A DNA stretch of 64,000 bases, taken from the IMG/VR virus record IMGVR_UViG_3300033513_000001, positions 25,431-89,430 of that record, one strand, 5' to 3'. Made by a program: the position numbers and the translations under genes. Of this stretch, positions 3,001 to 49,231 are shown in pieces; position 1 is the first letter of the stretch, and the number at the start of each line of letters is the position of its first letter. Source of the stretch: a virus. Its lineage: Duplodnaviria > Caudoviricetes. The notes below the pieces were generated by a model, which saw only the letters and a list, made by a program, of their open reading frames with translations, had not been told where the DNA came from and did not search any database.

Positions 3001-3412
3001 CAGTCCGGCGAGTCACCAGCACTTTAGCGAGAAAATCATGGCGGCGAACAACCCGGCCATGTACCGCGTCGAGACTAACACCAACTTGGCGGGCGCAATC
3101 GTCGGCGGCGTGTTCGTGACGGGCTACCACAACAAGTTTGCCAACTACGCTTCGGGCCTGCCGAGGGTGATGGACACGATGGCTCACCCGAATATGCCTG
3201 ACGGCACGTTCCTGTTCTTGAGCGAGAACGTCCCGTACCCGATGGCGAGAGAGGCACGCGGACTCGCACTCGACACTCTGATTCCGTACACCTACTTCCC
3301 GTTGGCAGCAGCGACGACCATCAACTACCCATTCGCTATGCTTTGTTCAGAAACGCCCATCTGCTTCCATCCGGCTGGTCAGGCAGCCATTGTAGGTGTG
3401 TCTATCGTGTAG
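56..3412 (+). CDS. Prohead/scaffold region fused in one ORF to major capsid protein (capsid part probably from internal ATG 1664); contains FN3-like insertion
   Basis: GGAGG before ATG 56; N-half has phage head-associated motifs (WGGTEGRKWA; YGDPANFSWP) and low-complexity T/S/E/P scaffold-like linkers; C-half reads like a capsid protein; followed by neck and tail genes; in-frame AAGGAGG-N8-ATG at 1649-1666. Confidence 0.75.
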   Translation: MTNVVVNIPISALKGGDPISISAQQADLAKAMPQGPSITNVLIAADKENPPEPIAQKPDFSVNVVDDQKKVLPISPDLANVESGAQAAERHPPVVNITPEVEKVIAQSESQLPATYTPPIGVRDIAMRGLEGVKDNDVAKLISSGAPLTLGFVHSMVSYFATHESTDPNWQVWGGTEGRKWAEKIERKVGSDTVIKAVQDIPGLKHIAEGDLQKCENCQHFRDMACGYCQKYDSKIQPDWVCQSWDKSSGHPDAAPIAEQGGMLMDAQKAVSTPTETTSTSETEAVKAEPVTESTTTEDSKACKADDVDKAITEAEKLGKAVGIENKNFDKSLPYDDEFEKRIPKKEGEPKSPPKGYPKDAKLYGDPANFSWPCDNPGRCASAMAYYNAGKGKGKYDEREWRILGRRIARLVNQHGAKDGTVKFNPRTGKLEREAEGKKMAKDLKTARTLVGEVRGKLDSAPEGMTPELIAQAASALDVVMNELSEATNEQGAVIGAEPPAVKAAKPETKPSPETTSSPSSETTESPKTVKKEDKPMSDTTTSPTTSVPSQADVKKVEPMPTQPPVAYQTFNINTGNVHLPEFISALADEGNMFKAQKIAGQGSSFDEMFAKAQIDLLNQGGWTSANARRGIGGLPAAGQDLCFNADWGGKDEQLKKAITLSSIPGIYLIRLAKLMLPVYAGLRNRLPTQTAATGSNQAIWRVKSGFGTFSFVDALMSAENTTGASVTDTFLSFTAPYQRVTVNDNVTLEAVYTTRQYDDPLQVAIIGSLSTLLQSEEMKIMGDNYTDLGAPSGTPVAAAVAGAGFSAGTADTFKVSALSYIGTLVPAKGQVGAVDAVGESTPSSVSSPTVNGTTSTSVTLTWNAVKGAASYNIYWGLNGANWYWVKTSTATSCSISAAEVAAALATNTPNTGDESGNAYGYEGLIAWAEKSTIYSQVTTLRKFTDQAGAALTTTSSGISEIDSVLSYLWTNWKTAPSLMVSSPASHQHFSEKIMAANNPAMYRVETNTNLAGAIVGGVFVTGYHNKFANYASGLPRVMDTMAHPNMPDGTFLFLSENVPYPMAREARGLALDTLIPYTYFPLAAATTINYPFAMLCSETPICFHPAGQAAIVGVSIV

Positions 3413-3426
3413 TATCTTGTCGCAGA

Positions 3427-3451
3427 GGGGGCAGGAACGATTCTTGCCCCC
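3427..3451 (+). terminator. GC-rich hairpin after capsid gene (possibly bidirectional terminator)
   Basis: GGGGGCAGGAA-cga-TTCTTGCCCCC between convergent capsid and HNH genes; no clear U-tract. Confidence 0.5.
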
Positions 3452-3458
3452 AAAGCGA

Positions 3459-4208
3459 TTAGGAAAGGTGCTTCCAAGACTTTCGGTTGACTATGTTCAT
3501 GACTGTCATGCGACTCAGACCATACTGTTCAGCAACGTCTTTCTGCATCTTTCCAGAATAAACTAGGCGACGGATTTCCAGAACATCTAGGTCAGTCAAT
3601 TTAGCATTCCAATTCCGTTCGCCGCGAGGCGGGTTGTTCCTGCCCTTTAACATCATGTCTTGGTTGTTGTCAGCGTCAGTACCGACAAACAAGTGGCTTG
3701 GGTTCGTACAGGAAGGTCGGTCGCAGGTATGGCATACCAACTTTCCTTCGGGAATCTCGCCATGTGCAAGAATCCAAGCAACTCGGTGAGCGTGAACCGT
3801 CTTGCCTCTGAATCTAAAGTTGCCGTAGCCAAGTGAATCTTTAGAGCCAGTCCAGTTCCAACACTCTTGGTCTGAGCGTTTGTCAACTTTGGCCCAGAAT
3901 AGGCCCACTGTGTCAACATGGGAATAACGGTTCGAGTTGGCGCAGTGAATGGAACAAAACTTGACGTGCGGGTGTCCCTTGTGGTCAAACTCTTTGCCGC
4001 ACCACTCGCAGGTCTTGGTATGGTCGGTGCAGCGCTGAGTCAGGTTGCACCTGTGGCAATACTTGGCGGTGTTGAGAATGGGCTTACCGCAGAGCGGACA
4101 GGTCTTTCCTTTCTCGTATCTGTACCGAGCATCCCAACACTTGCGACACAGGCCATGAGTACCTGGCGCAGCCGAGACGGTCTTACAATCGTGACATAGT
4201 TTTTTCAT
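3459..4208 (-). CDS. HNH homing endonuclease with N-terminal Zn-ribbon repeats
   Basis: HRVAW...VCHTCDRPSCTNPSHLFVGTDADNNQDM HNH motif; several CxxC pairs; C-terminal HTH-like tail; AGGAGG SD. Confidence 0.9.
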   Translation of the reverse strand: MKKLCHDCKTVSAAPGTHGLCRKCWDARYRYEKGKTCPLCGKPILNTAKYCHRCNLTQRCTDHTKTCEWCGKEFDHKGHPHVKFCSIHCANSNRYSHVDTVGLFWAKVDKRSDQECWNWTGSKDSLGYGNFRFRGKTVHAHRVAWILAHGEIPEGKLVCHTCDRPSCTNPSHLFVGTDADNNQDMMLKGRNNPPRGERNWNAKLTDLDVLEIRRLVYSGKMQKDVAEQYGLSRMTVMNIVNRKSWKHLS

Positions 4209-4753: not shown

Positions 4754-5359
4754 GTGGATTACACAAGTTTTGAGCAAGTCAAGCTGGAAATCGGCGCTCA
4801 CGAAAACGTGGACGACTCAAAACTTGCCACCTACGTCACGGCGGCCAGCCGAAGCGTTGACCGCTATTGCACGGGCGCACAGGACAGCGCGGGCGATAAC
4901 TATTTCGCTATCAGCACCTTGACCGACGAGGTCTTGACGGGGTGGGCCGACAGCGACAGTTACGTGTCCACCTACCTGCACAAGCCGACAATCAGCGGCG
5001 TCACGGCCCTGTCATGGCGGGTGACGCCGAGAGATTCTTGGACAGCCGTTGCGTCCACTGACATTGTGACGGACGGCTCGCCGCTGGTCAGGGGCTACGC
5101 GCCGGGCTACGTCATCGGAAGAGTGTTTCTCAAAGTGACTTACTCTGGTGGGCTGGCGGCGACTGTGGCGGCGTTGCCGAGCGACTTTGTGGAGAACGTT
5201 GCTGTCATTGCGGCCCGTTTCTACCGCGAGGGCGAGGCGGGTGTCTCGGACGTTATCGGCGTGGGTGACTTGGGGCAATTGATGTATCGCAAGGCTCTGC
5301 CCAACCGCGTCTATCTGTTCTTGGCGGCCTATGTTCGGCGCATCCCGTGGAGGCTCTAG
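4754..5359 (+). CDS. Head-tail connector/adaptor protein
   Basis: YTSFEQVKLEIG...DDSKLATYVTAASRSVDRYC...LPSDF...AARFYR pattern of gp6/gp15-like adaptors. Confidence 0.75.
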   Translation: MDYTSFEQVKLEIGAHENVDDSKLATYVTAASRSVDRYCTGAQDSAGDNYFAISTLTDEVLTGWADSDSYVSTYLHKPTISGVTALSWRVTPRDSWTAVASTDIVTDGSPLVRGYAPGYVIGRVFLKVTYSGGLAATVAALPSDFVENVAVIAARFYREGEAGVSDVIGVGDLGQLMYRKALPNRVYLFLAAYVRRIPWRL

Positions 5360-5830
5360 GTGAGCGTCACCGATGTAATGGCTGGCCTCGCCATAGTGGA
5401 AACGAGGCTCAAGACAGCGGGGACAATCAACCACGTCTTTGACGTTGCGCCGAACAGCATCAATCCTGCTGACCTGCCATGCTTTGTCAATATGCCGGGG
5501 CAGGAGCGGGTCAAGTGGGAAGGCGGGAGCGACGAGTCGGAAACGGCGGGGCTGGCGACAAGGGTCTACCACTGTTTGCTCTACGTCGTGCCGAGGGGCG
5601 TGGGCGTAAGCGGCGAGATTGTCAGGGTGACACTGCCTGTTCTGGACTTGGCGAGAGTCGAGTTTCAAGGCAGCCAGTCTCTCGGCGGCAAGAAAGGAAT
5701 CGTCCGGGTGAATTACTTGGGCGACAGCGGAGTGCGCGAGTTGACCTACGTGGGCATGGGCTACATCGGGGTTGACATCCAAGTGGAAGTGACGGAGAGG
5801 ATTGTGGCTTACTATGCTGACAGTGAGTAA
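5360..5830 (+). CDS. Putative tail terminator/completion protein
   Basis: Size and position directly before major tail gene; abutting genes. Confidence 0.6.
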   Translation: MSVTDVMAGLAIVETRLKTAGTINHVFDVAPNSINPADLPCFVNMPGQERVKWEGGSDESETAGLATRVYHCLLYVVPRGVGVSGEIVRVTLPVLDLARVEFQGSQSLGGKKGIVRVNYLGDSGVRELTYVGMGYIGVDIQVEVTERIVAYYADSE

Positions 5831-5889
5831 GCATACCCAAGCCGGTTGAGGAAGGAACTCCGGCGCAGGACTTTTAGGAGGAATAGAAA

Positions 5890-6723
5890 ATGGCAGTTCC
5901 AAGTTCACTTTTCGCAACCGTTGGGTTTAGGAACTTGCGAGTGTTCGCACTGGACAGCAACGGTTACATGGCGGCGACGACCTCGACGACGGCCTACGAG
6001 GGCATTCGCGTCACCAAGAGCAAGGTCTTGACCCTCACGCACCCAGAGGCGCGGCTCATCATCCATCACGGCGATGACCGAATCTTCTCTCTGGACACCT
6101 TGCCGCCCACCGAGCCGCTGACGGGCGAGATTACGCTTGCCAACTTCAATCTTGAGTTTGACGCGCTGGTGGGCAATGTCCTAGTCGTCACGCAGAACGA
6201 AATCAAGATGATTTTGGTGGCGAGCGACCAGCAGGGCAACGAGCCGCTGGTGGGCCTGTTCGCCTATCAACAGGGCTTGGACGCGGACGACACTTCGGCT
6301 GAGTTCAATGAGCGCCGCTGGCACTTTGCAATGATGCCGAAGGCATGGTGCATCAAGCGTATGCCGCCCGCGAATGCGGACGCGGCCAACCCGCTGTACA
6401 CCGTGCGCCCGAACTTTGTCACCAAGTACCTGACAGGCAATGCGTTCGCCTCTACGACTGAGGGGGCGACCCAAGCCCAACTTGTTCATGGTGTGGCGAA
6501 CTACAAGCCCAAGCTGGTAGCGTGGAAGTCCACCACGTCGGGCGAGACGTTCTACCCGTTCCCGACTGCCACTCCTGCCGTCTCTGGCGACACGATGGGC
6601 ATCCCGATTGTGTGCGATGCGGCGGCTCTCAAGGCCGCCAATGTGACCTACAGCACCACAGGCATCACGCTTTCCAGCACAACGGTTGGCAACATCATCT
6701 CGTGTATGTACGAGACGAGTTAG
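5890..6723 (+). CDS. Major tail (tube) protein
   Basis: AGGAGG SD; 277 aa; position before chaperone and tape measure. Confidence 0.7.
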   Translation: MAVPSSLFATVGFRNLRVFALDSNGYMAATTSTTAYEGIRVTKSKVLTLTHPEARLIIHHGDDRIFSLDTLPPTEPLTGEITLANFNLEFDALVGNVLVVTQNEIKMILVASDQQGNEPLVGLFAYQQGLDADDTSAEFNERRWHFAMMPKAWCIKRMPPANADAANPLYTVRPNFVTKYLTGNAFASTTEGATQAQLVHGVANYKPKLVAWKSTTSGETFYPFPTATPAVSGDTMGIPIVCDAAALKAANVTYSTTGITLSSTTVGNIISCMYETS

Positions 6724-6742
6724 TATGTACGAGACGAGCTAG
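6704..6742 (+). repeat. 19-nt tandem duplication of the tail gene 3' end
   Basis: TATGTACGAGACGAGTTAG followed by TATGTACGAGACGAGCTAG. Confidence 0.85.
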
Positions 6743-6814
6743 CGGGTCTAGCGCAGACGGTTCTCCTAACTCTCTACGCGGTTTGTGCGGAATCGGCTCT
6801 GCGCCGAAACCGGA

Positions 6815-6846
6815 CGGGCAGAGGACACGCCCCCGTTCTCTGCCCG
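6815..6846 (+). terminator. Hairpin between major tail and chaperone genes
   Basis: CGGGCAGAGGAC ... GTTCTCTGCCCG. Confidence 0.45.
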
Positions 6847-6878
6847 CCTTCGTACAAGCGGGGGCAAAAGGGGGCACG

Positions 6879-7364
6879 ATGCAAACTAAGACCATCACGT
6901 ATCAAGACGCAGAAGTCTCGGCGGAGTTGACCATCGGGCGGGCCAACTATCGCATGGGGCTTGTCCATTCCTCTTTGATTGACTCCGCACGCGAACGCCT
7001 GTTCCCAAAAAAGAAAACCGAGCAGGACAAGGAAAAAAAGCCTGAACCTCCTCGTTACGATGAGGATTATTGGATTGGCTTGTTCTCTTATCCTGCCCTG
7101 TGTGCGGGGACGGTCAAAGGTGTGATTGCGCTGACCCCAAAGGCTTACACAACCGTTGTGGACGGTCAGAGCATGGAGGTAAGCGGGTGTTCCCAATACA
7201 ATCTTGACCTTCACAATCACATCACTTGGGAGCAATATGAAGACCTGCCCGAAGAACTGGTGACGCAGTGGGAGAACGCCGTCTTTGAACTTAATCCCCA
7301 CTGGCTACCCGCGAAGCCGAAGGACGAGCAAAAAAAAGCAGTTGGCGAGTCTACCGAAAGTTAG
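6879..7364 (+). CDS. Tail assembly chaperone (gpG-like)
   Basis: ATG 6879 after purine-rich SD; precedes tape measure; A8 slippery run at 7330-7337. Confidence 0.75.
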   Translation: MQTKTITYQDAEVSAELTIGRANYRMGLVHSSLIDSARERLFPKKKTEQDKEKKPEPPRYDEDYWIGLFSYPALCAGTVKGVIALTPKAYTTVVDGQSMEVSGCSQYNLDLHNHITWEQYEDLPEELVTQWENAVFELNPHWLPAKPKDEQKKAVGESTES

Positions 7365-7651
7365 CCAAGCGGGGAAAGGGCAAAGACCCCAGAGGCGATT
7401 CGGAAGAAAGCCTTGTACCCGTTGAACTGCACGACCCGGAGTTTGCATTTTACGTCTATGACTTGATGGAAGCGTTCGACTGGCGCTTCCTTCCATCGCA
7501 ACTGTTGGCAGAGGATGAAGCCCTAATGGATGACCTGTTCACCATCAGCCAGATGTCAAGTTGGGTGAAGGAAGCGGGCGAGATTGAGCAGATGTCAAGT
7601 TGGTCTGACAAGGTAGTGCAATGGCGGGAAAAGCAACTGAAAGAATCCTGA
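7330..7651 (+). CDS. -1 frameshift extension of tail chaperone (gpT-like)
   Basis: -1 frame is open from the A8 run to stop 7651 and includes track ORF 7463..7651 (DWRFLPSQLLAEDE). Confidence 0.7.
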
Positions 7652-10551
7652 CCGTCAGGATACAACTCTTGCTGGAAGACAAGCAGGGGGCGCAAGCCGC
7701 GTTAGCCAAGATTCGGTCCGACGTTGACGCGGTGGGCGCTACGTCGGTCAAGTCTGGACAGGTCGCGGCGCAGGGGCTTGGACAAGTCGGGAATGCGGCG
7801 GCCCAAGCCAAGCCGCAGGTGGACGCGCTCAACGAGTCGCTGGAAAAGGCGGTTCAGTCTGCGAAGGTTGCCCCAACCGTTCCAGCACAAGCCGCTGCGG
7901 GTCAACAGCCTACCAACGCCATACAGCGCATGGAGGCTCTGAAAATTGAGGCCCGCGCCGCTCTGGAAGCCGCAACCGCACACAAGCAAGTCGCCGTCGC
8001 AACGGTTCAGGACGCACAAGCCACCAACCAAGACACGCAAGCCACGCAGACATCGGTCAGGGTAGAGGAAGAACTAAACGCTACTCTGGCCCAAAGAATC
8101 AACCTGTTCAACCAGATGCGCCAGCAAGGAGTCTCGCCTAAAGACGCCGCTGCGTTCTTGGGTGTTCCCGCTGAAACCCTCCAGCGGGCCGTTCCATCAG
8201 CGCAACCCGTAGAGTCAGCGGTTCAAAGATTGGCGCGGCAGAAGCAAGAGGCGATTGAGGGCTTGCGAGCGGCAGGAGTCGGAGCGGGCAGAACGACTGG
8301 GGCTGGTTTCGTTCCCCCAGTTGGCGATGTTCTACGTGCAGGCGAGGGGATGTCGGTAAAGGAAGCCGAGAAGTTCAACCAGTTGGTTGCTCAAGGCGTC
8401 CCTGGGATTGAGGCCGCCCAACAAGCCATGTCGGGATTGGGACAGCAGACCAAAGGCGTCACCGGTGGTCTGCGCGGTATGCACGGCGCTTACATCGCTA
8501 TCTTCTCCATCATGCGCCTCGGCATGGAACTGCAAACGGCGGGCGCTGCGCTCCAAACCGACATCAACACCAAGCAAGCCACGTACCTCAAAGCCGCTGG
8601 ACAGTTCAGCCCACTGGCGAGGGCATGGAACGAGCAACTGGCGAACGTGGAACGCGCCAACGCCAGAATCGGGGAAATCATCACTGAGCAACAGTTGCCT
8701 GCCATGAAGGAACAGGCAGCCCAAGCGCAACTTCTCTCAGACATCTATGCGCGTCATCCCGCGCTGTCTAGGGCGCAAGTCGGGGCGGGGCAAGTCTTGA
8801 CTGGCGCAGGCGGGATACTGCAATACGGCTCGCAGATGGCTATGCTGGCGCTGAGTTTGCAGCAACTCAGCCACAGCGGGATGCTTGGCGCGGGCGGCAT
8901 ATTCGGAGCAGGCGGGCTAAGAGGACTAGCTGGAACAACTGGTCTTGCGACTGCGGGAGCAGGCGCGGGAGTCATGGGAACTGGCGCACTCGGACTTTTG
9001 ACAAATCCTGTGACGGCTGGCATTGCTACTGGCGCTATTGCTAATCAGTTTATGCCAACTATTAGAACAGGAGCACGTGGCGTAGATATTGGAATGGGTG
9101 CGACCATCGGGGCAGAACTGGGCAAGTTTGACTTTGACAAGGCCGCTGCGCTTGTACAACGATGGGCACTTGCACATTTGGCGGGCCAGAACGCTGCCGA
9201 TAAATACTTTACTGCCATATCCGAGGGCAAAGGCTGGATTGACGCAGCAACCGCCGCTGAGATGAGACTTGCTATGGCGCGCAAGGAAGGTGTTACAGAG
9301 ATTGACACCTTGAAAATGAAGGCTACTTGGTCGCAGGGTGTCACGGCCTACGTGGATTACCAGAAGCAATTGACCGACCTAGACCAGCAGACTTCTGACC
9401 AGCGCACCAAAATCAACAAGGACTACTCCGACAAGGAAAGTGAAATCCGCTCAAAGTATGGTCAGGACTGGCTTGCCATAACGTCGGACTCCATCAAACA
9501 GCAGAAGCGAGAGGATTCTGACCTCGCCTTCAACCGCGCCAAGCAAGCAAGGGACTTTGAAAAGAGCGAAACTGAAACCACTCAAGACTACTATGCCGAC
9601 AGGCTCAAGGCCGCGCAGGACTTTGGCGAGGAAGAAGTCAACAACGAGCGCAAGCACCAGCGCGAGATGGCGAACATGGAGCAAGACCACCAGTTGCGAA
9701 TGGAGGAGTTTGTCGCAACGGGTGATGCGCTAGGCGCGTTCAGGGAGATGCGGAACTATGAGGTCAAGCGCCAGCAGGCGGAAGCGACCTACGCCGATGA
9801 AACCGAGACGCGCAGCAAAGACCTCGGCAAGCGTCTGGCCGAGATGGACGCCGACTTTGCCAAAGAGCGGGAGAGGCGCAAGGAACACTTTGACCAGCAA
9901 ATCAAAGACCAAGATGAGGTTCTGGCTAGGCAGAGAGCGCAAGACGCACAGGATTTGAAAGACCGCTTGAAGGCGCTTGACGATGAGCGCACAGCATCGT
10001 TGACAAAACTGGAAGAGAACAAGAACGCCGCACTTGGCGAGCTTGACGACACCGCCACGAAGGAGAGGGAGAAAATCACAGGGACTTTCAACGACCTGAT
10101 GAACGACCTCGGCATACAGACCGATGCGGCCAAGAAAAAGTACCAAGCCTACTTTGACATGATGGGCCTACAATTCGAGAACTACATCGGCAGGGTCGGG
10201 GCGGCTATATCTGGCCTGCCTGGGTTTGAGCAAATGGCGGGCCTAGCGCCAGCGCAGAGGTTGGCGGACATCTCCAAGAAAAAAGAACAGGACATGACCA
10301 CGCCAGAAGGGTTGCCCATTCAACAAAAAACGTCGCCGAGAGGGTATCCGGGTGTGGGCGTGGGCAGACAGCCAGTGCAGCCTCAAGCCGTTGGCGGGAC
10401 ACAGCCACAAAGCGTCAGGACAGAAACAAATTTCAATGTGAACATCACAGTGGACGGGAGCTTGTCTGACTCTGAGATGGCAACCATCCAATCCCAGACG
10501 CGACAGACGATTGACGATGTGATTCGGACACACAGGACAGGGCCGTACTGA
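7621..10551 (+). CDS. Tape measure protein
   Basis: 976 aa Ala/Gln/Gly-rich helical protein with hydrophobic middle and coiled-coil C-half, directly after chaperone. Confidence 0.85.
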   Translation: MAGKATERILTVRIQLLLEDKQGAQAALAKIRSDVDAVGATSVKSGQVAAQGLGQVGNAAAQAKPQVDALNESLEKAVQSAKVAPTVPAQAAAGQQPTNAIQRMEALKIEARAALEAATAHKQVAVATVQDAQATNQDTQATQTSVRVEEELNATLAQRINLFNQMRQQGVSPKDAAAFLGVPAETLQRAVPSAQPVESAVQRLARQKQEAIEGLRAAGVGAGRTTGAGFVPPVGDVLRAGEGMSVKEAEKFNQLVAQGVPGIEAAQQAMSGLGQQTKGVTGGLRGMHGAYIAIFSIMRLGMELQTAGAALQTDINTKQATYLKAAGQFSPLARAWNEQLANVERANARIGEIITEQQLPAMKEQAAQAQLLSDIYARHPALSRAQVGAGQVLTGAGGILQYGSQMAMLALSLQQLSHSGMLGAGGIFGAGGLRGLAGTTGLATAGAGAGVMGTGALGLLTNPVTAGIATGAIANQFMPTIRTGARGVDIGMGATIGAELGKFDFDKAAALVQRWALAHLAGQNAADKYFTAISEGKGWIDAATAAEMRLAMARKEGVTEIDTLKMKATWSQGVTAYVDYQKQLTDLDQQTSDQRTKINKDYSDKESEIRSKYGQDWLAITSDSIKQQKREDSDLAFNRAKQARDFEKSETETTQDYYADRLKAAQDFGEEEVNNERKHQREMANMEQDHQLRMEEFVATGDALGAFREMRNYEVKRQQAEATYADETETRSKDLGKRLAEMDADFAKERERRKEHFDQQIKDQDEVLARQRAQDAQDLKDRLKALDDERTASLTKLEENKNAALGELDDTATKEREKITGTFNDLMNDLGIQTDAAKKKYQAYFDMMGLQFENYIGRVGAAISGLPGFEQMAGLAPAQRLADISKKKEQDMTTPEGLPIQQKTSPRGYPGVGVGRQPVQPQAVGGTQPQSVRTETNFNVNITVDGSLSDSEMATIQSQTRQTIDDVIRTHRTGPY

Positions 10552-39982: not shown

Positions 39983-40270
39983 ATGAAGAAGTTGAAAGTC
40001 GGTGACAAAGCACGCCTATCAAATGTTGACAAGAAACTTGAGGGTCATCCGTGCAAGGTTCTATCCGTGAACACGGGAATGGAAAGAAAGCACATCTATG
40101 CCGAGGTTTTCTTTCTTGAAAAAGGAAAGGCGAGTCAAGAAAGACGCCTCTTTGACCCCGAAAGCGTGGTGAAGGAAACGAACTCTGGCGTTCTGGCCCT
40201 GTGGAAAGAACTGGAAACCGCGCAGGAGAAACTCGCAAAGATTGAAAAGGTGTTTGACCATGAAACTTAG
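39983..40270 (+). CDS. Hypothetical protein
   Basis: G-rich SD; first ORF after promoter. Confidence 0.6.
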   Translation: MKKLKVGDKARLSNVDKKLEGHPCKVLSVNTGMERKHIYAEVFFLEKGKASQERRLFDPESVVKETNSGVLALWKELETAQEKLAKIEKVFDHET

Positions 40271-40427
40271 TGCAGTTTGTATAACTTCGGCATATATCTT
40301 TCTTCTCTCTGGAGTAGCTTTTAACATTCTTTACTCAATTGATGGCGGCGACCCGTCAACGTTCTATGCGGTGTGCGCCGTTGCGATGGCTGCCCTTGCT
40401 ATCTACCACAGAAAGACGAACGGATGA
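40260..40427 (+). CDS. Small membrane protein
   Basis: Two TM-like segments. Confidence 0.5.
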   Translation: MKLSAVCITSAYIFLLSGVAFNILYSIDGGDPSTFYAVCAVAMAALAIYHRKTNG

Positions 40428-40663
40428 TTGACCTATCTCGTTTTGAAGACCAAGTGTACCTGAAGGTCGGGGCAAGCGTTACCCTGTATGACCCTATCAA
40501 GTTTGGCAACAAGCAAGTTGCCGCAAAGGTCGTGTGGTATGAACCTGGCAACGAGTTTATGAAAGTCAGACTTGGAAATGGCGCGAAGTGCTACGTCAAT
40601 CTTGAGTATGTCATCTTGGAGCATCGGAAACTTCCAGACCTCATCTTGGAGCGGATTCTGTGA
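40424..40663 (+). CDS. Hypothetical protein
   Basis: ATGA overlap coupling. Confidence 0.55.
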   Translation: MIDLSRFEDQVYLKVGASVTLYDPIKFGNKQVAAKVVWYEPGNEFMKVRLGNGAKCYVNLEYVILEHRKLPDLILERIL

Positions 40664-43600
40664 TTGACCATTTTGACCTCGCCGCCTTCCAATCCGCCTT
40701 GCCCAAATCCGCCGAGTCCCTCGAACTGGTGGATGGCGAGTTTGCCTTCCGCGTTCCCGCTGGCGCAGCCTTCATTGAAGTGCGCTCAAGCATCGGAGCG
40801 AACGGAAAATCAGCCGACACGGGCGAGGATTCCATTCGCGCTTGGCTGGTCAACGCCGACGGCGACCCGTTGGGCGCGAAACTGTCCAAGTACATCACCA
40901 GAGTTTCGGGATGGCAAAACAGGCTCATGGACACGCTGGAAGAACTTTACTCCCGCGCCTTCCGAGCGGGACGCTGCGAGAGATGCGGTAGCCCGAAGTC
41001 AATCTTTGTGTCAAAGACCCACAAAAACCCGAATCGCCTGTTTGCCAAGTGTTACCCTTGCGATGACGGGTTTGTGTGGCTGGACAGCCAGCCGCTACCC
41101 ATGTTCTCTCTATACTCAGAAGCCAATAACAAAGCCGAAGCAAGCAAAAATGGAGAAGGGACTGAGGTTGAGTTGTTGGCTTCTGAGTCAGGGAGAGAGA
41201 AAGGAAAAAACGATGGCGACTTTGACGCCACCAGTGTATGCTTACCAGATCAAGAAGGGGCACAAGTATCACCTAGCAAGAGCGGGCCAAGAAGGAGAAG
41301 CCTCTTCGGGAATGGCAGTGTGCAACTTCATCATCTGGGAGGGGGCGCTGAGAGCAAAAGTGTCAGAGTTGAAACCAGAGGACATTTGCAAGAAATGTCT
41401 GGGAGCAATGAAAGCAACATAGGAGAGAAAAATGGCGACTTTGATACCGCCGACAGTGGCGTACAGAAACTTGATGGGCCTGGGCAAGCAGTGGCATCTC
41501 CTGAAACGTCCCGACGAGTTGCCGCTGACCCCATACCGAAGCGGGATGACAGTGTGCCTGCAAGTGATGTGGCCCGAAGCGCAGATGACAGCAGTGTCCC
41601 GCTTGGAGTCAAGCGAGGTCTGCCGGGCGTGTCTGGGGGCGCTGATGATAAGGTGAGTTACCTCAAATTTGGAAAGAGAGGCTATGCTAGTCTACCGAAA
41701 CAAGCAGACCGACAAGAAAGCGAAGTGGCACATTCTGGACACATCGCTACGGGGGGTTCGCCTGACGCTGTGCGGGAAGCCGCTTTACCCAACGGCAGAA
41801 ACGGCAGACTTGGAAACGGTGAAGGTGTGCCACTGGTGCAGGGTTTCAAGTTCGGGCAACGGGCGAACTTTGAAGTAATAGAAGAACCAGAAGACATCAC
41901 TGTTGTTGCCCAACCCGTCCAATTCACCGAGCGCAAGCCCAACGCTGAGCAGCAAGCCGTGATTGACCTGCCCGTGAACTGCGCGGCTAGGGTCTTGGCA
42001 GGGCCGGGCAGCGGTAAGACTTTCCTGATTGAGCATCGCATCAGGAAACTGATTGACTCTGGTGTCAATCCCGCCAAGATTCTCGTCGTAACCCTGACCA
42101 ACACGATGGCAACCGCAATGGGTCAGAGAATCGTCAAGCTCAATCCGAGCATGGAGGCCCGCGCCGACCACATTTGCACGATTCACGCGGCCTGCAATCG
42201 GATACTCAAAGAGGAAATTGGGCCGCGCCAAGTTGCAAAGTCTTGGCAGGTCAGGAAGTGTCTTGAACAACTGGCGAAGGAACTATGGTCCGAAGACCAG
42301 AGGCCGGGCTACGCCGAGATTGACGCTTGGATTCAACTGGCGAAGCGGAATGGGCTATCTAGCGGCGAGGACTTGGTGTTTTTCAATGAGAGACTAGGCA
42401 GTTTTCACGGCGACAGGCTACACCAAGCCAGAATCGGGCTTGACACATTCTTGCAAGCCCAGAGGATGACGACCTTTGCCGATATGCTTTTTGAGGTTGA
42501 CTTGCGGTTGGCGCATGACGCGGCTTTCAGGGCTAGGCAACAGTCTAAATTCTCTCACGTCATCATAGACGAAGGGCAAGATACGGGCGGCCAAGCCATG
42601 CGTATCCTGACGACCATCGCGCAACCAGAAAACAACCTGCTGATTGTGGCCGACACAGATCAAACCCTCTTTAGGTTCACAGGCGCTACACCAGAAACCA
42701 ATGTCTATGACGGGTTCACCGAGCGTTACCCCAACGGCGAAACCCGCAAACTCGTCACCAACTACCGAAGCACAGTTGAAGTGGTGGAGGCCCAGAAGCG
42801 CCTCATCGCCCACAACTATTCTGACAAGGGCGGCATTTACCACCAAAGCTACTTCAAGCAACTCTGTGCCAGAGTTGGCGCAGAACAGGGCAAGGCCATC
42901 TCGTTCACAATGTACGCAACCGCCGATGAGGAAGCCCGAAGCATCGTCAACCAGATTCTTGGCGACCGCGACAAGCCAGAGGATGTCTTTATCATCACCC
43001 GCACACGGGCGCAGGCGGCATGGTTTGAGGGGCCGCTGAGTCGGGCCAACATTCCCTACCTGAACCTGAACGGCGGTTCGTTCTGGTCACTGCGCCACGT
43101 CAGGAACATCGTCAACTACGTCAGGCTGGCGAGCCATTACGACTGTGATGAGGCGTTCAAGGATGTCTACAACATCGCCACAAACGACTTTCGTGTTCCG
43201 TGGGTAGACGAGCCTTACTGCAATCACCGCTACTTGGGCAACGCTTTTGTGGAAGCCTGCGGCGGGTCGTGGAAGGGCATCGGCAAGGCGATTTACCAGA
43301 GACGGTCTTGGGGCATTGGTGCAGAGGACTTGCAGAGTTTTATCTATGACATCCATCTCATTCTCATAGAGAATGGGCTAGTCGTGGCCCTGCAATACGT
43401 CATTGACAAGTGCTATCGCAAGTGGCTTATGCACGACGAGGGGCTGGTGGACGAGGACAACGCCGAGGGCGGAAAGTTCGAGGACTTGGGGACGCTCTTG
43501 GGCATTGCGGGTGAATACCAAGATCCTGACAAGTTCTTTGCCTTCGTGGACGGGATGCAGAAGGCAGACAAAGCCAAGAACGACAAGGACTGGTCGGGCA

Positions 43601-43920
43601 AACTCGTTATCTTTACAGCGCACAAGAGCAAGGGGCTGGAGCGCCCAACAGTCTACGCGCCGGGCTGGTGCGAGGGCAAGACCAAGACGGGTCAACCGTT
43701 CGGGCTTCTGCCGCACACCTTCAGCCTGACACAACCGCCTCAATTGGGCATCCTGCCGATGAATGGTCAGGGGCGCATTGAGGACGAGCTTGACATCGCC
43801 TTCGTGATGGTCAGTCGGGCGATGAGCAAGGTTGTTTTGAGCGGCTACCAAGTTGACAAGCGCGGCGCGATGGAGCCAAGCAGGTTTGTCAAATATATCA
43901 TGGAAAGGAACATACAATGA
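40660..43920 (+). CDS. UvrD/Rep-family SF1 helicase with N-terminal GRF-like Zn finger and long disordered linker
   Basis: NAEQQAV, AGPGSGKT, IIDEGQD, VADTDQ, NYRST, FTAHKSKGLE, VMVSRA; CERCG..S.T..NPNRLFAKC..C...FVWLD. Confidence 0.9.
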   Translation: MIDHFDLAAFQSALPKSAESLELVDGEFAFRVPAGAAFIEVRSSIGANGKSADTGEDSIRAWLVNADGDPLGAKLSKYITRVSGWQNRLMDTLEELYSRAFRAGRCERCGSPKSIFVSKTHKNPNRLFAKCYPCDDGFVWLDSQPLPMFSLYSEANNKAEASKNGEGTEVELLASESGREKGKNDGDFDATSVCLPDQEGAQVSPSKSGPRRRSLFGNGSVQLHHLGGGAESKSVRVETRGHLQEMSGSNESNIGEKNGDFDTADSGVQKLDGPGQAVASPETSRRVAADPIPKRDDSVPASDVARSADDSSVPLGVKRGLPGVSGGADDKVSYLKFGKRGYASLPKQADRQESEVAHSGHIATGGSPDAVREAALPNGRNGRLGNGEGVPLVQGFKFGQRANFEVIEEPEDITVVAQPVQFTERKPNAEQQAVIDLPVNCAARVLAGPGSGKTFLIEHRIRKLIDSGVNPAKILVVTLTNTMATAMGQRIVKLNPSMEARADHICTIHAACNRILKEEIGPRQVAKSWQVRKCLEQLAKELWSEDQRPGYAEIDAWIQLAKRNGLSSGEDLVFFNERLGSFHGDRLHQARIGLDTFLQAQRMTTFADMLFEVDLRLAHDAAFRARQQSKFSHVIIDEGQDTGGQAMRILTTIAQPENNLLIVADTDQTLFRFTGATPETNVYDGFTERYPNGETRKLVTNYRSTVEVVEAQKRLIAHNYSDKGGIYHQSYFKQLCARVGAEQGKAISFTMYATADEEARSIVNQILGDRDKPEDVFIITRTRAQAAWFEGPLSRANIPYLNLNGGSFWSLRHVRNIVNYVRLASHYDCDEAFKDVYNIATNDFRVPWVDEPYCNHRYLGNAFVEACGGSWKGIGKAIYQRRSWGIGAEDLQSFIYDIHLILIENGLVVALQYVIDKCYRKWLMHDEGLVDEDNAEGGKFEDLGTLLGIAGEYQDPDKFFAFVDGMQKADKAKNDKDWSGKLVIFTAHKSKGLERPTVYAPGWCEGKTKTGQPFGLLPHTFSLTQPPQLGILPMNGQGRIEDELDIAFVMVSRAMSKVVLSGYQVDKRGAMEPSRFVKYIMERNIQ
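41213..41422 (+). CDS. Nested mini-protein 1 (H/C/CxxC), alternative frame inside helicase ORF
   Basis: AAAGGA SD; MATLTPPVYAY...KYHL...VC...ICKKCLGAMK. Confidence 0.65.
   Translation: MATLTPPVYAYQIKKGHKYHLARAGQEGEASSGMAVCNFIIWEGALRAKVSELKPEDICKKCLGAMKAT
41432..41656 (+). CDS. Nested mini-protein 2, paralogue of mini-protein 1
   Basis: AGGAG SD; MATLIPPTVAY...QWHL...VC...VCRACLGALM. Confidence 0.7.
   Translation: MATLIPPTVAYRNLMGLGKQWHLLKRPDELPLTPYRSGMTVCLQVMWPEAQMTAVSRLESSEVCRACLGALMIR
41684..41878 (+). CDS. Nested mini-protein 3, paralogue
   Basis: GAGAGG SD; VYRN...KWHIL...LC...VCHWC. Confidence 0.6.
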   Translation: MLVYRNKQTDKKAKWHILDTSLRGVRLTLCGKPLYPTAETADLETVKVCHWCRVSSSGNGRTLK

Positions 43921-44576
43921 CCTTTTTTGAACATCTTGAGTCCAACGGTTTCTTCACGTCAACTTGGCTAGAACAGCGCGAGGATGGCGCGTGGGGCTTG
44001 TGGCCTGACTACGAGGGCAATCGCGGGTATCAAGACGAGGAGGAGAAATTTGTCCTGTGGCTTGGCGACGACAACAACTTGCGCGAAGTCGCCAAACTGT
44101 GCGCGCTGGTTGGGGTCACGAGGGCAAGCATCCAGTACAAGCATTTGGTGATTGAGCCAAATGACGGCGGACATACCAGCGTCCAGATTCGCTATGCCGA
44201 CAAGCCTGCCCAAGTTGAAAAAGAGGGTTTCAGGTTCTTGGGGCTGCGTTGCGGGACTGACTGCGGCAAGTATGCTGTCATCTGGTACATGGGCAGCCTC
44301 ATGGGAATGCTGGCAGCCAGTTACGGGAAGTTTGACGAGTGGCAGAAGGAGCACAAACGCAAACGATGTTCCCACTTCGCCGTTCCTGGCGATAATGACT
44401 ATGACTCAAAGCCAGAACACTACAGCCTTGACCCGTTTGAGTGGAAGTTTGAGGGCGCGACAGAGGATGAGGATGTGGTCACAATAGAATGTCATCACGA
44501 GTCTGCCAAAGAGAACAGCTACGTGTGTCCCGCCTGCGGTCAGTTGATTGGCGACCCACCTGTGCGGGACGAGTGA
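43917..44576 (+). CDS. Hypothetical protein
   Basis: ATGA overlap; C-terminal CPAC. Confidence 0.6.
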   Translation: MTFFEHLESNGFFTSTWLEQREDGAWGLWPDYEGNRGYQDEEEKFVLWLGDDNNLREVAKLCALVGVTRASIQYKHLVIEPNDGGHTSVQIRYADKPAQVEKEGFRFLGLRCGTDCGKYAVIWYMGSLMGMLAASYGKFDEWQKEHKRKRCSHFAVPGDNDYDSKPEHYSLDPFEWKFEGATEDEDVVTIECHHESAKENSYVCPACGQLIGDPPVRDE

Positions 44577-44636: not shown

Positions 44637-45575
44637 GTGAAAGTGACTTTAGAGGAACTTAGACGGCGACAGTCATTGCCGCTTGATGAAAAGATTGGCA
44701 TGACCGAGCACGTCATTGAGGAGTGGTGGAAGCATTGGCGGGGTCAAGTCTACCTTTCTTTCAGCGGCGGTAAGGATTCTAGCGTTCTGGCGCATATTCT
44801 TGACAACTCTCTCATCGGGGGTGTCCCGAAGGTCTTTAGCGACACTGGATTGGAGTATCCAGAAGTCAAGGAGCACGTCAAGTCACTGACTAGTGTGGTT
44901 ATTATTCATCCCAAACTAACCTATCGCCAAGTCATTGACAAATATGGCTACGCCGTTGTGAGCAAATCCGTCTCAAGGTTCGTATGGGATGTTCGTAGAG
45001 CGTCGGACAAAAACAAGAATGTTGTCAACCTGAGACTGACAGGATACAATCGGAAGGGCGACTATATCCCAACCATGCGAATACCTAAGAAGTGGATGAA
45101 ACTCATTGATGCGCCATTCATGGTCAGTGACAGGTGTTGCCAGATTCTAAAGAAAAGCCCGATGATGACCTATCAGCGAGAGACAGGCAGATACCCTTAC
45201 ACGGGGATGATGGCTAGTGACTCTATGCTCAGGGAGCGGAGCTATTTGATGTACGGGTGCAGCCTATACGATGCAAAGAGTCCTGTGTGCAACCCGATGT
45301 CGTTCTGGACTGACCAAGATGTTCTAGAGTACATTGTCAGATTTGGGGTAAAAATTCCATCGGTCTATGGCGAGATTGTCAAAAATGGTAATGGGAGTTG
45401 GACAACAACAGGAGTCAAGAGAACAGGTTGTGTCTGGTGTCTGTTCGGTGTCCATCTTGAGAAGGGCAAGAACAGATTTCAGATGCTAAAGGAAACCCAC
45501 CCGACAATCTACAACTACTGCATCAACAAATTAGGGATTGGGGAGGTCTTGGACTTCATAGAGGTTGAATACTAG
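44637..45575 (+). CDS. PAPS reductase-family (PP-loop) protein
   Basis: YLSFSGGKDS, FSDTGLEYPE, DRCCQILKK, RTGCVWC. Confidence 0.85.
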   Translation: MKVTLEELRRRQSLPLDEKIGMTEHVIEEWWKHWRGQVYLSFSGGKDSSVLAHILDNSLIGGVPKVFSDTGLEYPEVKEHVKSLTSVVIIHPKLTYRQVIDKYGYAVVSKSVSRFVWDVRRASDKNKNVVNLRLTGYNRKGDYIPTMRIPKKWMKLIDAPFMVSDRCCQILKKSPMMTYQRETGRYPYTGMMASDSMLRERSYLMYGCSLYDAKSPVCNPMSFWTDQDVLEYIVRFGVKIPSVYGEIVKNGNGSWTTTGVKRTGCVWCLFGVHLEKGKNRFQMLKETHPTIYNYCINKLGIGEVLDFIEVEY

Positions 45576-47250: not shown

Positions 47251-48207
47251 GTGCTACTATGCGACAAGATGATAATGGGATTGCAACAAAGGAACAGTTT
47301 AGAAAAATATGACAGGAGTCTGCTAGAGGAACTGAATAAGACAACCGTTATCCTGATTGACAACGTTGCAAGATACTACTATGAGGACTCAGACCAAGAA
47401 TACTGGGACTTGCAGAGAGACTTTCCTAATGTTGCTCCGCCTCTCAGAAGTTTCTTTATGGAGTTCAGTAGTCCCAAATTCGTGAGGCACGAGGGAATTA
47501 TAGACGCGGTAACTCGCCCGACCTATAGGACTGGGCTTCTTTTTTCCTATGATGAAACAAAGGATGTGAAAAACGAGTCAGTTGAAAAGTTTTCCAAACA
47601 AGTTGGAGCGAAATGGATAGCCACCATTGTGATTTTCTACGATTATGGAGGAAACATTAGTCGTGGCCCGATGTGCAGTCTTCTTATCAAGCCAGATGGT
47701 AGAATTGGGGAAATTCCGCCTAGTTTCGTGGTTGGCCTTTACAAGAATTATGTGGACAACATGAGGAAATGTGGGTTCAGCAATGACGAGGTAACTGACT
47801 CTGTGGCAATCACAATTGAGCCCGCTTTGCTGGCTATCAGCTTCATGCACTGCAAGAATGTAACAGTTAGGAAAGTGACAATACCCGCTGGCCTTATCAG
47901 GAAAGCAAGAAAAAAGCACCACCACGAACTGATACGCTACCACATCCTTGACATTGAGCCGATGAAAAAGGTCTTGCGCTCAGAAGGTAACTCAGAAAAG
48001 ACAGGACTCAAGCGCGCGCTACACATTTGTCGTGGTCACTTCAAGGACTACAACGATGGAAAGGGATTGTTCGGCAGGATTCACGGGCTATACTGGTGGG
48101 AGCAACATTTGAGAGGAAGCGTAGAGGAAGGAATCGTAAACAAAGACTACGAAGTACACTCAGTTGATGAGGAGGCGCAAAATGCCATACACAGTCAAGA
48201 CGCTTGA
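47251..48207 (+). CDS. Hypothetical phage protein
   Basis: AGGAGG SD; C-terminal HICRGHFKDY...WWEQHLRG...KDY. Confidence 0.7.
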   Translation: MLLCDKMIMGLQQRNSLEKYDRSLLEELNKTTVILIDNVARYYYEDSDQEYWDLQRDFPNVAPPLRSFFMEFSSPKFVRHEGIIDAVTRPTYRTGLLFSYDETKDVKNESVEKFSKQVGAKWIATIVIFYDYGGNISRGPMCSLLIKPDGRIGEIPPSFVVGLYKNYVDNMRKCGFSNDEVTDSVAITIEPALLAISFMHCKNVTVRKVTIPAGLIRKARKKHHHELIRYHILDIEPMKKVLRSEGNSEKTGLKRALHICRGHFKDYNDGKGLFGRIHGLYWWEQHLRGSVEEGIVNKDYEVHSVDEEAQNAIHSQDA

Positions 48208-49231
48208 TGAACTGATGAACGGCCCAATGGAGATAGATTGGGTTGTAGATGGTATCATGGCCCCCAGAACAAGCGGGATGATCGCGGGTGCGCCAGGAAT
48301 CGGCAAAACATGGTTCACGCTTGACTTTGGTCTATCCTCTGCTCTGCGCGAGACTGGTGTTGACAAGAAGTGGTTGGGATTCTTCAATGTCAAGCCTGGG
48401 CGCGTCTTGATTATTGACGAGGAAAGCGCAGACTTGCTTTTGCGTATTCGGATGTACGACTTGTGTCGCGCATTGGGAATCAACTGGAAGGGACTGCCCA
48501 TCTGGACGATGACAAGTCAGCACGTCAATCTGTCGCCGTCAAAACTTGTCAATGGCGAAGCGACAGAACCCAAGAAGATGAAAGACCTGTACAAAATCAT
48601 CGAACAGGTAAAACCCAATGTCATCATCTGGGATAGTTACGCGAGGATACATCGGTCAAATGAAAACAGCGCCGACGAGATGGCAGCGGTCTTGGAGCAG
48701 TTCAAGCGCATCTGTGACACTTTCGACGTTTGCAATGTCATCAATCACCATCTGACGAAAGCGCCCGGCTTCAAGCAGTCAAACATTCGTGGCTCTGGCG
48801 ACATTCCAGCTTTTCAAGATTGGGCGTTCACCATATCCGGCGGCGGCAAGGGAAAACTGCGTGTGGAACACGTCAAATCCAGATGGGGCAAGGTCATCCC
48901 AACATTTGCCGTTTCCATTGATGAAACTTACGGAATCAAACTCGTTCACGAATCTGCCAGCGAAGAATTGACAACCGATGAACTTGTGTTCAATCTGTGC
49001 AAGGACGGGAAAGAGCGCCAAGACCTGCTTGACGAGTGCGTGACTCGCGGCAGAAGTGAATCCACTGTTGACAGAGCCATTATTCGACTTATCAGGAGTG
49101 GCAGACTTGAGAAAAGCCGCGAGGGAAAGGTTGTCATGTACTACTCAATTGACGATTCCGTTGTTCCAATGCCATTCTACAATGAAAACCTAAAACTGGT
49201 CGTCGGGGTAGGATTAGTGCCAAAAGATTGA
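48182..49231 (+). CDS. AAA_25/RepA-like RecA-fold replicative helicase
   Basis: GGAGG SD; AGAPGIGKT, IIDEE, IIWDS, NHHLTK, RGSGD; possible C-terminal wHTH. Confidence 0.85.
   Translation: MPYTVKTLDELMNGPMEIDWVVDGIMAPRTSGMIAGAPGIGKTWFTLDFGLSSALRETGVDKKWLGFFNVKPGRVLIIDEESADLLLRIRMYDLCRALGINWKGLPIWTMTSQHVNLSPSKLVNGEATEPKKMKDLYKIIEQVKPNVIIWDSYARIHRSNENSADEMAAVLEQFKRICDTFDVCNVINHHLTKAPGFKQSNIRGSGDIPAFQDWAFTISGGGKGKLRVEHVKSRWGKVIPTFAVSIDETYGIKLVHESASEELTTDELVFNLCKDGKERQDLLDECVTRGRSESTVDRAIIRLIRSGRLEKSREGKVVMYYSIDDSVVPMPFYNENLKLVVGVGLVPKD

Follow-up and report, generated by a model that had tools for sequence, protein, structure and literature searches.

Predicted dual coding in a phage replication helicase by small genes nested out of frame in its linker

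The helicase gene and the reading frames inside it

The window analyzed here is a stretch of 64,000 nucleotides (nt), positions 25,431 to 89,430 of the IMG/VR virus record IMGVR_UViG_3300033513_000001, taken from an 89,430-bp phage genome, assembled as a single contig, from a wetland metagenome. It contains a gene for a UvrD/PcrA-type helicase, and three small open reading frames (ORFs), m1, m2, and m3, lie within that gene on the same strand in the +1 frame, so that two long frames share the same DNA. An earlier interpretation made from the letters of the window, called the sequence-only reading below, had described a helicase ORF of 1086 amino acids (aa) with a GRF-like zinc ribbon, a linker, and a UvrD core, together with three +1-frame ORFs, and all of these are present (Table 1). 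The segment probably represents genuine dual coding, in which a phage replication helicase has pre-existing small genes nested in an interdomain linker that tolerates them. Coordinates given without a locus name are those of the window.

The GTG start of the helicase gene at 40660 overlaps the stop codon of the preceding gene as GTGA, and its own stop overlaps the ATG of the next gene (ATGA at 43917). The core spans aa 428–1080 and is recognized by Pfam (PF00580, E 7e-41; PF13361, E 2e-18) and by PHROG 1967 (E 9e-67). It has the N- and C-terminal domains, Q motif, Walker A motif, and DExQ motif II expected of UvrD/PcrA helicases of superfamily 1 (SF1), and GPGSGKT and DEGQD are invariant in the helicase alignment (A2). 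Known phage helicases align with the protein only from aa ~422 onward; the GenBank phages gave no DNA-level match to the window, and their protein-level matches were confined to the helicase core.

The N-terminal module was modeled by AlphaFold2 (AF2) with a predicted local distance difference test (pLDDT) score of 90, and searches with the model gave no clear fold relative (Foldseek E > 0.2; VIA Z ≤ 6.3). The ribbon within it is a weak match to Pfam PF23549 (17.2 bits with a gathering cut-off of 27, E 0.0044), and the relatives P0002 and P0013 carry precomputed PF23549 / PF06839 matches at the aligned position. About 220 open codons of linker had been described between ribbon and core; this figure fits the part overlapped by the mini-genes (222 codons) and underestimates the linker as a whole, which totals ~275 aa. 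The same reading had noted that no ATG lies just before the Q motif, and the sole in-frame ATG, at 41395, is indeed 182 codons away.

The three mini-ORFs share a pattern in which Y, H, C, and CxxC are invariant in their alignment, as the sequence-only reading had it, and m1 and m2 open with an identical N-terminal stretch, ATGGCGACTTTGA. The match between these two has a phmmer E of 1e-10 among the ORFs of the window. The strongly diverged m3 keeps H, C, and CxxC and is without the N-terminal MAxLxxP (MATLxPP) motif and the CLGA tail. The proposal that each has its own Shine–Dalgarno (SD) sequence holds for m1 (AAGGA at 41201-41205, spacing +7 nt) and for m2 (AGGAG at 41421-41425, spacing +6 nt), but the ribosome-binding site (RBS) of m3 is weak, with GAGG only 2 nt upstream of ATG 41684. 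The SD of m2 overlaps the TAG stop of m1, an arrangement typical of translational coupling. No further six-frame ORF in the 89-kb genome has the pattern [WYF]H[LIV]...C...CxxC, and the genome thus holds no additional paralogue of this kind.

Two observations concern the DNA just before m1. The +1 frame is open over the whole N-domain (40664..41212), 183 codons in which ~3 further stops would be expected; this may be chance, as runs of 200+ codons exist elsewhere in the genome, and no family homology was found upstream of the m1 ATG in this interval. A canonical –1 slippery heptamer, A AAA AAC in the helicase frame, occupies 41205..41211 directly before the same ATG and is probably no more than the A-rich spacer in the RBS of m1.

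Table 1. Positions of the helicase gene, the nested ORFs, and related features in the window and in relatives
Sequence	Feature	Position	Strand	Size or residues	Remarks
Window	Host helicase ORF	40660..43920	+	1086 aa	N-domain, GRF-like Zn ribbon, long linker, UvrD/PcrA SF1 core
Window	N-terminal module	40660..41109	+	aa 1-150	Alpha/beta domain (RSS..GEDSIR..TRVxGW) and CxxC...CxxC GRF-like ribbon
Window	GRF-like Zn ribbon	40972-41082	+	aa 105-141	
Window	Interdomain linker	41110..41940	+	aa 151-427	G/S/A/D/R/P-rich; 12% hydrophobic residues
Window	m1	41213..41422	+	69 aa	+1 frame; full family member, MATLTPP..YHL..VC..CKKCLGAM
Window	m2	41432..41656	+	74 aa	+1 frame; full family member
Window	m3	41684..41878	+	64 aa from ATG 41684, or 69 aa from TTG 41669	+1 frame
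Window	In-frame GTG codons	41827 and 41836 (41827..41838)	+		Possible internal starts of a helicase-only isoform; AAGGTG 8 nt upstream of the second
Window	UvrD/PcrA core	41941..43899	+		Q motif NAEQQ, Walker A GPGSGKT, motif II DEGQD
L012	Nested mini-gene	5524..5739		71 aa	SD AGGAG, 9 nt before ATG; resampling P of a stop-free helicase frame 0.07
L058	Nested mini-gene	3392..3787		131 aa	Family domain and C-terminal extension; SD GGAG, 6 nt; P 3e-4
L033	Nested mini-gene	128..490		120 aa	SD GGAGG, 6 nt; P 0.0115
L009	N-domain and ribbon gene	4992..5477			
L009	Three small unrelated genes	5456..5680, 5685..5912, 5920..6183			Last with CxxC...HCPC motif
L009	Helicase gene	6081..8210			
Window	RNase_T-like exonuclease	35039..35656			Replication module neighbor
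Window	AAA_24 ATPase	35995..37053			Replication module neighbor
Window	PAPS-reductase-like gene	44637..45575			Replication module neighbor
Window	AAA_25 ATPase	48164..49231			Replication module neighbor

A family of small proteins with free-standing members

The mini-proteins belong to a small family that also exists outside helicase genes. A HMMER profile of m1–m3 searched against 1.84 billion representative proteins gave 46 matches at E < 1e-3 (best E 2e-12), about 40 of which are 64–103 aa long and aligned end to end. Their alignment (A3) has the consensus MAxLIxPxxAYR..GKWHL..(T/S)VC..DICxKCLGAM, in which the His, the Cys, the CxxC, and the Gly are invariant; the H, C, and CxxC residues are presumed to be zinc ligands. 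A hidden Markov model (HMM) built from the free-standing members alone recovered m1 (E 7e-25), m2 (E 2e-18), and m3 (E 1.5e-5) with no other match in the genome. Both m1 and m2 carry all family features, namely the H, C, and CxxC ligands, the MAxLxxP N terminus, and the CLG(A/P) tail, and m3 aligns to this HMM from profile position ~9 only.

Free-standing members lie within runs of small unannotated genes on phage-like contigs. One protein, P0131 (L024 692..1186, 164 aa), consists of two mini-family domains fused in tandem; tandem duplication therefore recurs in the family outside the helicase context. The tandem amplification proposed for the window fits m1 and m2, which are sisters in the mini-protein tree, less so m3, which is more distant.

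In the AF2 model, a mini-protein forms a small domain rich in beta structure with a helix at its C terminus (pLDDT 88, predicted TM score 0.73). Comparisons of the model with known structures gave no convincing match (Foldseek against the PDB, best E 1.8; VIA-align, best Z 2.7, to N-Ada and SH3-like barrels), and a BFVD search reached a best E of 0.03 with unnamed haloviral and actinophage proteins. Pfam and PHROGs searched with m1–m3, and Pfam searched with 32 A3 members, returned nothing meaningful. An Atlas feature search found clusters of "hypothetical protein" only, mostly viral. Three zinc-finger Pfam candidates (zf-HC3 PF16827, DUF3039 PF11238, and zf_Tbcl PF13451) had come from Atlas neighbors solely on a score of 0.83 or a TM of 0.5–0.6, and 0/32 A3 members match any of them at E ≤ 1. 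A word-index search of a 5.8-billion-protein catalogue with m1–m3 gave no match, not even to themselves; 0/6 nested copies are in that catalogue because gene callers retain only the long ORF.

Fused, nested, and split forms among the relatives

In all 12 database relatives (41–46% identical over the helicase) the N-domain and the helicase form one protein, most with the Zn ribbon, and the linker is short, nonconserved, and of low complexity. A zinc finger joined to the helicase through a short linker in homologous proteins, looked for as a check on the sequence-only reading, is thus found. The helicase alignment, used to scan IMG/VR and JGI metagenomes, recovered 90 loci, 24 of which hold both modules. 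N-domain and helicase share a single ORF in the 12 database relatives and at most of the loci, which makes the fused architecture ancestral. The ribbon lies ~855 nt from the Q motif in the window, and the extra length coincides with the mini-ORFs; where fused forms have no alternate-frame ORF in the linker, the distance is –5 to 235 nt.

The family HMM finds a member in the helicase linker of three further loci among the 90 (L012, L058, and L033), always in the +1 frame. In each the helicase frame is stop-free across the nested copy, and third-position T in the nested copies stands at 7–17% versus ~25% locally. The helicase cores of L058 and L033 are 52% identical, and their nested genes score z 14.8 in the mini frame versus 6.6 in the helicase frame. 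In these two loci the mini-gene sits where relatives have the Zn ribbon, whereas in the window and L012 it comes after the ribbon. L012 also has a free-standing paralogue directly upstream of its helicase. This upstream copy and the other free-standing controls (L001, L002, and L003) have 2–4 stops in the corresponding frame.

Two other loci are split forms. In L009 (= L036; IMGVR_UViG_3300014613_000020, 4992..8210) small genes separate the N-domain gene from that of the helicase, and 8 stops interrupt the 277 codons of the former helicase frame. In L028 (2989..5871) an N-domain and ribbon gene (2989..3477) is followed by a 712-aa helicase from ATG 3733, and the 255-nt spacer between them is AT-rich (GC 0.32) with 5 in-frame stops. 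With their unrelated inserts in the same linker, L009 and L028 are natural negative controls. Stops in the linker frame of relatives, which would have spoken against dual coding, occur only in these two split forms, neither of which has a family member there. Helicase-only genes of 666–681 aa are also found (L008 and L010).

Selection on both frames

Conservation among the nested copies follows the mini frame. The BLOSUM score of m1 with m2 has z 25.9 in the mini frame versus 2.0 in the helicase frame, and that of m2 with m3 has z 6.6 versus 0.6. A codon-usage model favors the helicase frame by 20–45 log units elsewhere in the gene, and the two frames are approximately equal only in 41110–41860.

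The helicase frame was assessed by resampling synonymous codons of the mini-genes with the codon usage of the genome. Over m1–m3 it holds 0 stops versus ~8 expected, and the probability of none in all three is 1.5e-4. Across the mini-genes this frame is T-depleted at the first codon position. At 45 stop-prone junctions, there are 0 T-ending mini codons versus 8.9 expected, and at the harmless junctions elsewhere 17 versus 27.3 expected. The peptide read in the helicase frame has a hydrophobic fraction of 0.111 versus 0.171 ± 0.020 (P 0.002), below 99.8% of the resampled versions. The depletion of T at sites without stop risk and the hydrophilic bias indicate selection on the translated helicase frame.

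These patterns point to selection on both frames: on the mini frame from family membership and frame-specific conservation, and on the helicase frame from the lack of stops, the T depletion, the hydrophilic bias, and the recurrence in three further lineages. True dual coding that preserves the helicase frame, as claimed in the sequence-only reading, is accordingly supported, with family membership, mini-frame conservation, a stop-free frame in four lineages, and fused homologues all consistent with it.

Alternative explanations

Several points weigh against dual coding. When the mini-genes' own T-poor codon set is kept in a conservative permutation, the stop-free frame has P of only 0.015 in the window and 0.16, 0.19, and 0.09 in the relatives. 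The window was picked because the frame was open, an ascertainment bias that does not extend to the relatives, which were found later. With its weak RBS and degenerate termini, m3 may be decaying. Split N-domain and helicase forms exist, and covalent fusion is therefore not strictly required in the helicase family; moreover, the internal GTG 41836 with its SD-like AAGGTG could yield a helicase-only protein. Expression of both frames is predicted from the DNA, and no fold or family match backs a function for the mini-proteins.

The last two points about the helicase belong to an alternative in which the mini-genes are real and the working helicase starts at GTG 41827 or 41836. In that case selection would not act on the long read-through from 40660, which would be a by-product, and the N-domain would act in trans or only head a junk-tailed protein. 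Viable split forms (L009/L036 and L028), the helicase-only genes L008 and L010, and the AAGGTG 8 nt before GTG 41836 all speak for it. An unselected frame, however, should hold ~8 stops, as that of L009 does, and none occurs in the window, L012, L058, or L033; the hydrophilic bias and the shortage of T at sites without stop risk also indicate a selected helicase frame, which makes this alternative unlikely. A helicase started internally at GTG 41836 may coexist with the full-length form, although this leaves the purged stops unexplained. It is less likely still that the mini-ORFs are untranslated relics, captured genes that are now merely linker-coding DNA. Such a history would suit the degenerate look of m3, but m1, m2, and the L012, L058, and L033 copies keep ATG, stop, SD at 6–9 nt, and the four Zn ligands. 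The mini frame is also the better conserved one, both among the paralogues and in the comparison of L058 with L033, and stops would accumulate at ~0.039 per codon in a +1 frame free of constraint.

Recoding offers another way to read the region, in which a programmed +1/–2 frameshift or transcriptional slippage near the A-run before m1 fuses the N-domain and ribbon to a mini-protein that has no independent start. The heptamer at 41205-41211 right before the m1 ATG and a +1 frame open from 40664 to 41419 would be in keeping with this. The heptamer, however, promotes a –1 shift, which leads into the third frame instead of that of the mini-genes. The starts of m2, m3, and the L058 mini-gene are each directly preceded by a stop in the same frame, and every copy begins at the conserved N-terminal Met of the family with its own SD, so that recoding appears very improbable. 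Removal of the 666-nt segment before or after translation, as an intron or in the manner of an intein, would mean that the overlap is not expressed, and the relatives are indeed rich in inteins and insertions (P0002, P0009, P0013, L011, and the L012 interruption). Against this, there is no Rfam intron match at E ≤ 1 within 40000–44500, and Pfam finds no intein/Hint domain in the window helicase, unlike in P0002, P0009, and P0013. A removed segment would also not need an open, hydrophilic helicase frame, and this explanation is hardly credible.

How the nested genes might be expressed

Under dual coding, a single mRNA would carry the helicase and the mini-genes. From GTG 40660, where the GTGA overlap would couple translation to the upstream gene, ribosomes would read all 1086 codons, and the full-length helicase would acquire a long inert tether in which 222 linker residues are the –1-frame reading of the guest genes. 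The overlapped stretch of the helicase would need only to stay open and soluble. Other ribosomes would initiate internally at the SD and ATG of m1 to make the first mini-protein. Since the SD of m2 overlaps the stop of m1, termination–reinitiation could hand ribosomes from m1 to m2, and they may also reach m3. The products would be folded Zn-binding mini-proteins.

What the mini-proteins do can be discussed with low confidence, as small early or accessory Zn proteins. A link to the helicase is argued from the rarity of the family and its nesting in four or more helicase genes within one clade. This repeated association suggests that the mini-proteins act with or on the helicase or simply exploit its expression. 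The anti-defense or regulator role put forward in the sequence-only reading is speculation.

Age of the frames and history of the nesting

Under the Keese–Gibbs criterion, the more widely distributed frame of an overlap is the older one (PMC8227390). By this criterion the mini frame would be ancestral in the overlap, and the helicase reading would be new, lineage-specific, and disordered. Disorder in one frame relaxes the constraint of an overlap (Rancurel et al., as cited in PMC8227390), which fits a disordered helicase reading.

Trees were built with FastTree and are indicative only. The tree of the helicase C-terminal half places the window, L012, and L058 in three different subclades, and sisters without a mini-gene occur in each of them. 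The mini-protein tree is weak. It does not group the nested copies into one clade: m1 is sister to m2, L058 is sister to L033, and the nested copy of L012 is near the copy upstream of the L012 helicase. Nesting may have arisen by at least two captures, or once long ago with later losses, and the trees do not decide between these.

The existence of split relatives suggests a path from insertion through a split gene to re-fusion. An insertion would initially divide the helicase in two, the state that L009 and L028 now show, and the parts would later be re-fused by purging stops from the helicase frame through changes that are synonymous in the mini-genes. A fuller version, which is tentative and rather less probable than not, makes the linker a recurrent nesting site for this Zn mini-gene family. 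In it, splitting and re-fusion, by which the host ORF comes to overprint an older gene ("reverse overprinting"), took place at least two to three independent times (window, L012, and L058/L033), and the mini-proteins are partners or regulators of the helicase dosed by internal initiation on its mRNA.

Neighboring genes and further observations in the clade

The setting of the nested-gene helicase is a replication module, whose other annotated members are given in Table 1. The gene directly after the helicase (43917..44576, 219 aa) ends in a CxxC zinc-ribbon-like motif with a weak TFIIB-type Pfam match (E 0.029). A second sample of the same study yielded a 433-nt contig over 40720–41152 that is 91% identical to the window, and nothing covering the mini-genes. 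Helicase third codon positions account for 22/31 of the substitutions in this contig. A diverged strain therefore exists. The nested segment is covered by contigs of the source sample only, and the listed runs include none of RNA. An IMG/VR scan with the window protein alone as query found nothing, and a genome-contig scan gave four contigs of metagenome-assembled genomes only, 0/4 with a mini-gene, and no cultured host.

The helicase clade is also a hotspot for selfish inserts (P0002, P0009, P0013, L011, and L040). Inteins with LAGLIDADG or other homing domains lie in the P-loop and motif II of P0002, P0009, and P0013; L011 has an HNH-like ORF (5371..5943), and L040 has a 1462-nt insert before the helicase core. 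The L012 helicase is interrupted after motif II (DEGQDT..MRIL) by ~430 nt with a 117-aa ORF (6614..6967) and resumes at 6998. This insert (6500..7000) has no Rfam intron match, and the 117-aa ORF has no Pfam match. The fused relative L041 has no Zn ribbon in the helicase frame; at 3207..3575 a 122-aa ORF in the +2 frame ends in a CxxC...CxxC ribbon with weak Pfam Zn_ribbon matches (E 0.0014). This ORF may represent a further nested gene, or compensating frameshifts may have displaced the ribbon.

Significance and comparison with known systems

Overlapping genes are usually explained as a new ORF inside an old gene, and the polarity would be reversed here. What appears to be new is that guest genes occupy the linker of a host gene whose own frame is overprinted on them, an arrangement replicated across lineages. 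An enclosing ORF that has adapted to read through its guests would be a concrete case of a disordered linker absorbing whole genes while the host protein stays intact. Living intermediates can be found among the relatives as split forms, single nesting, and triple nesting. The arrangement also marks an annotation blind spot, such that small phage protein families may be systematically undercounted. That a family so rare (46 clusters among 1.84 billion proteins) recurs in no fewer than four helicase genes is a lead to the function of both the Zn-protein family and the N-terminal module of the helicase.

Phages have well-known genes embedded out of frame in others, such as Rz1 inside Rz in lambda and, in phiX174, B inside A and E inside D. 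The mini-genes resemble these in being complete small +1-frame genes, each with its own start, that are enclosed by a larger phage gene and would share its transcript. Rz1 and the phiX174 genes B and E are regarded as born de novo in an older host gene, whereas here the embedded genes would be the older frame, because free-standing homologues exist. The present case also differs in having three tandem copies and in the recurrence of nesting in several lineages. The phiX174 A/B overlap is discussed in PMC8227390.

A second parallel is the hepadnavirus polymerase, whose spacer overlaps the preS/S envelope gene (PMC8227390). In both cases a flexible spacer between two replication-enzyme domains co-encodes a second protein in another frame. 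Hepadnaviruses, however, are animal viruses with a compact genome and a debated overlap genealogy, whereas the helicase lies in an 89-kb phage without comparable pressure on size. The guest family here also exists outside any overlap.

Genes of the T-even phages are split by inserted homing-endonuclease genes. As in these and in L009/L036, small genes have landed at a permissive site in a conserved replication gene; there the insertion leaves the host gene as two ORFs, but in the window the host ORF is continuous and reads its guests in another frame. The UvrD/PcrA SF1 helicases of large phages (PHROG 1967; Bacillus SPO1-like phages) share the homologous core (PF00580, PF13361) with the window protein. 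They differ from it in that the N-domain with its GRF-like ribbon and the nested mini-genes are specific to the metagenomic clade found here.

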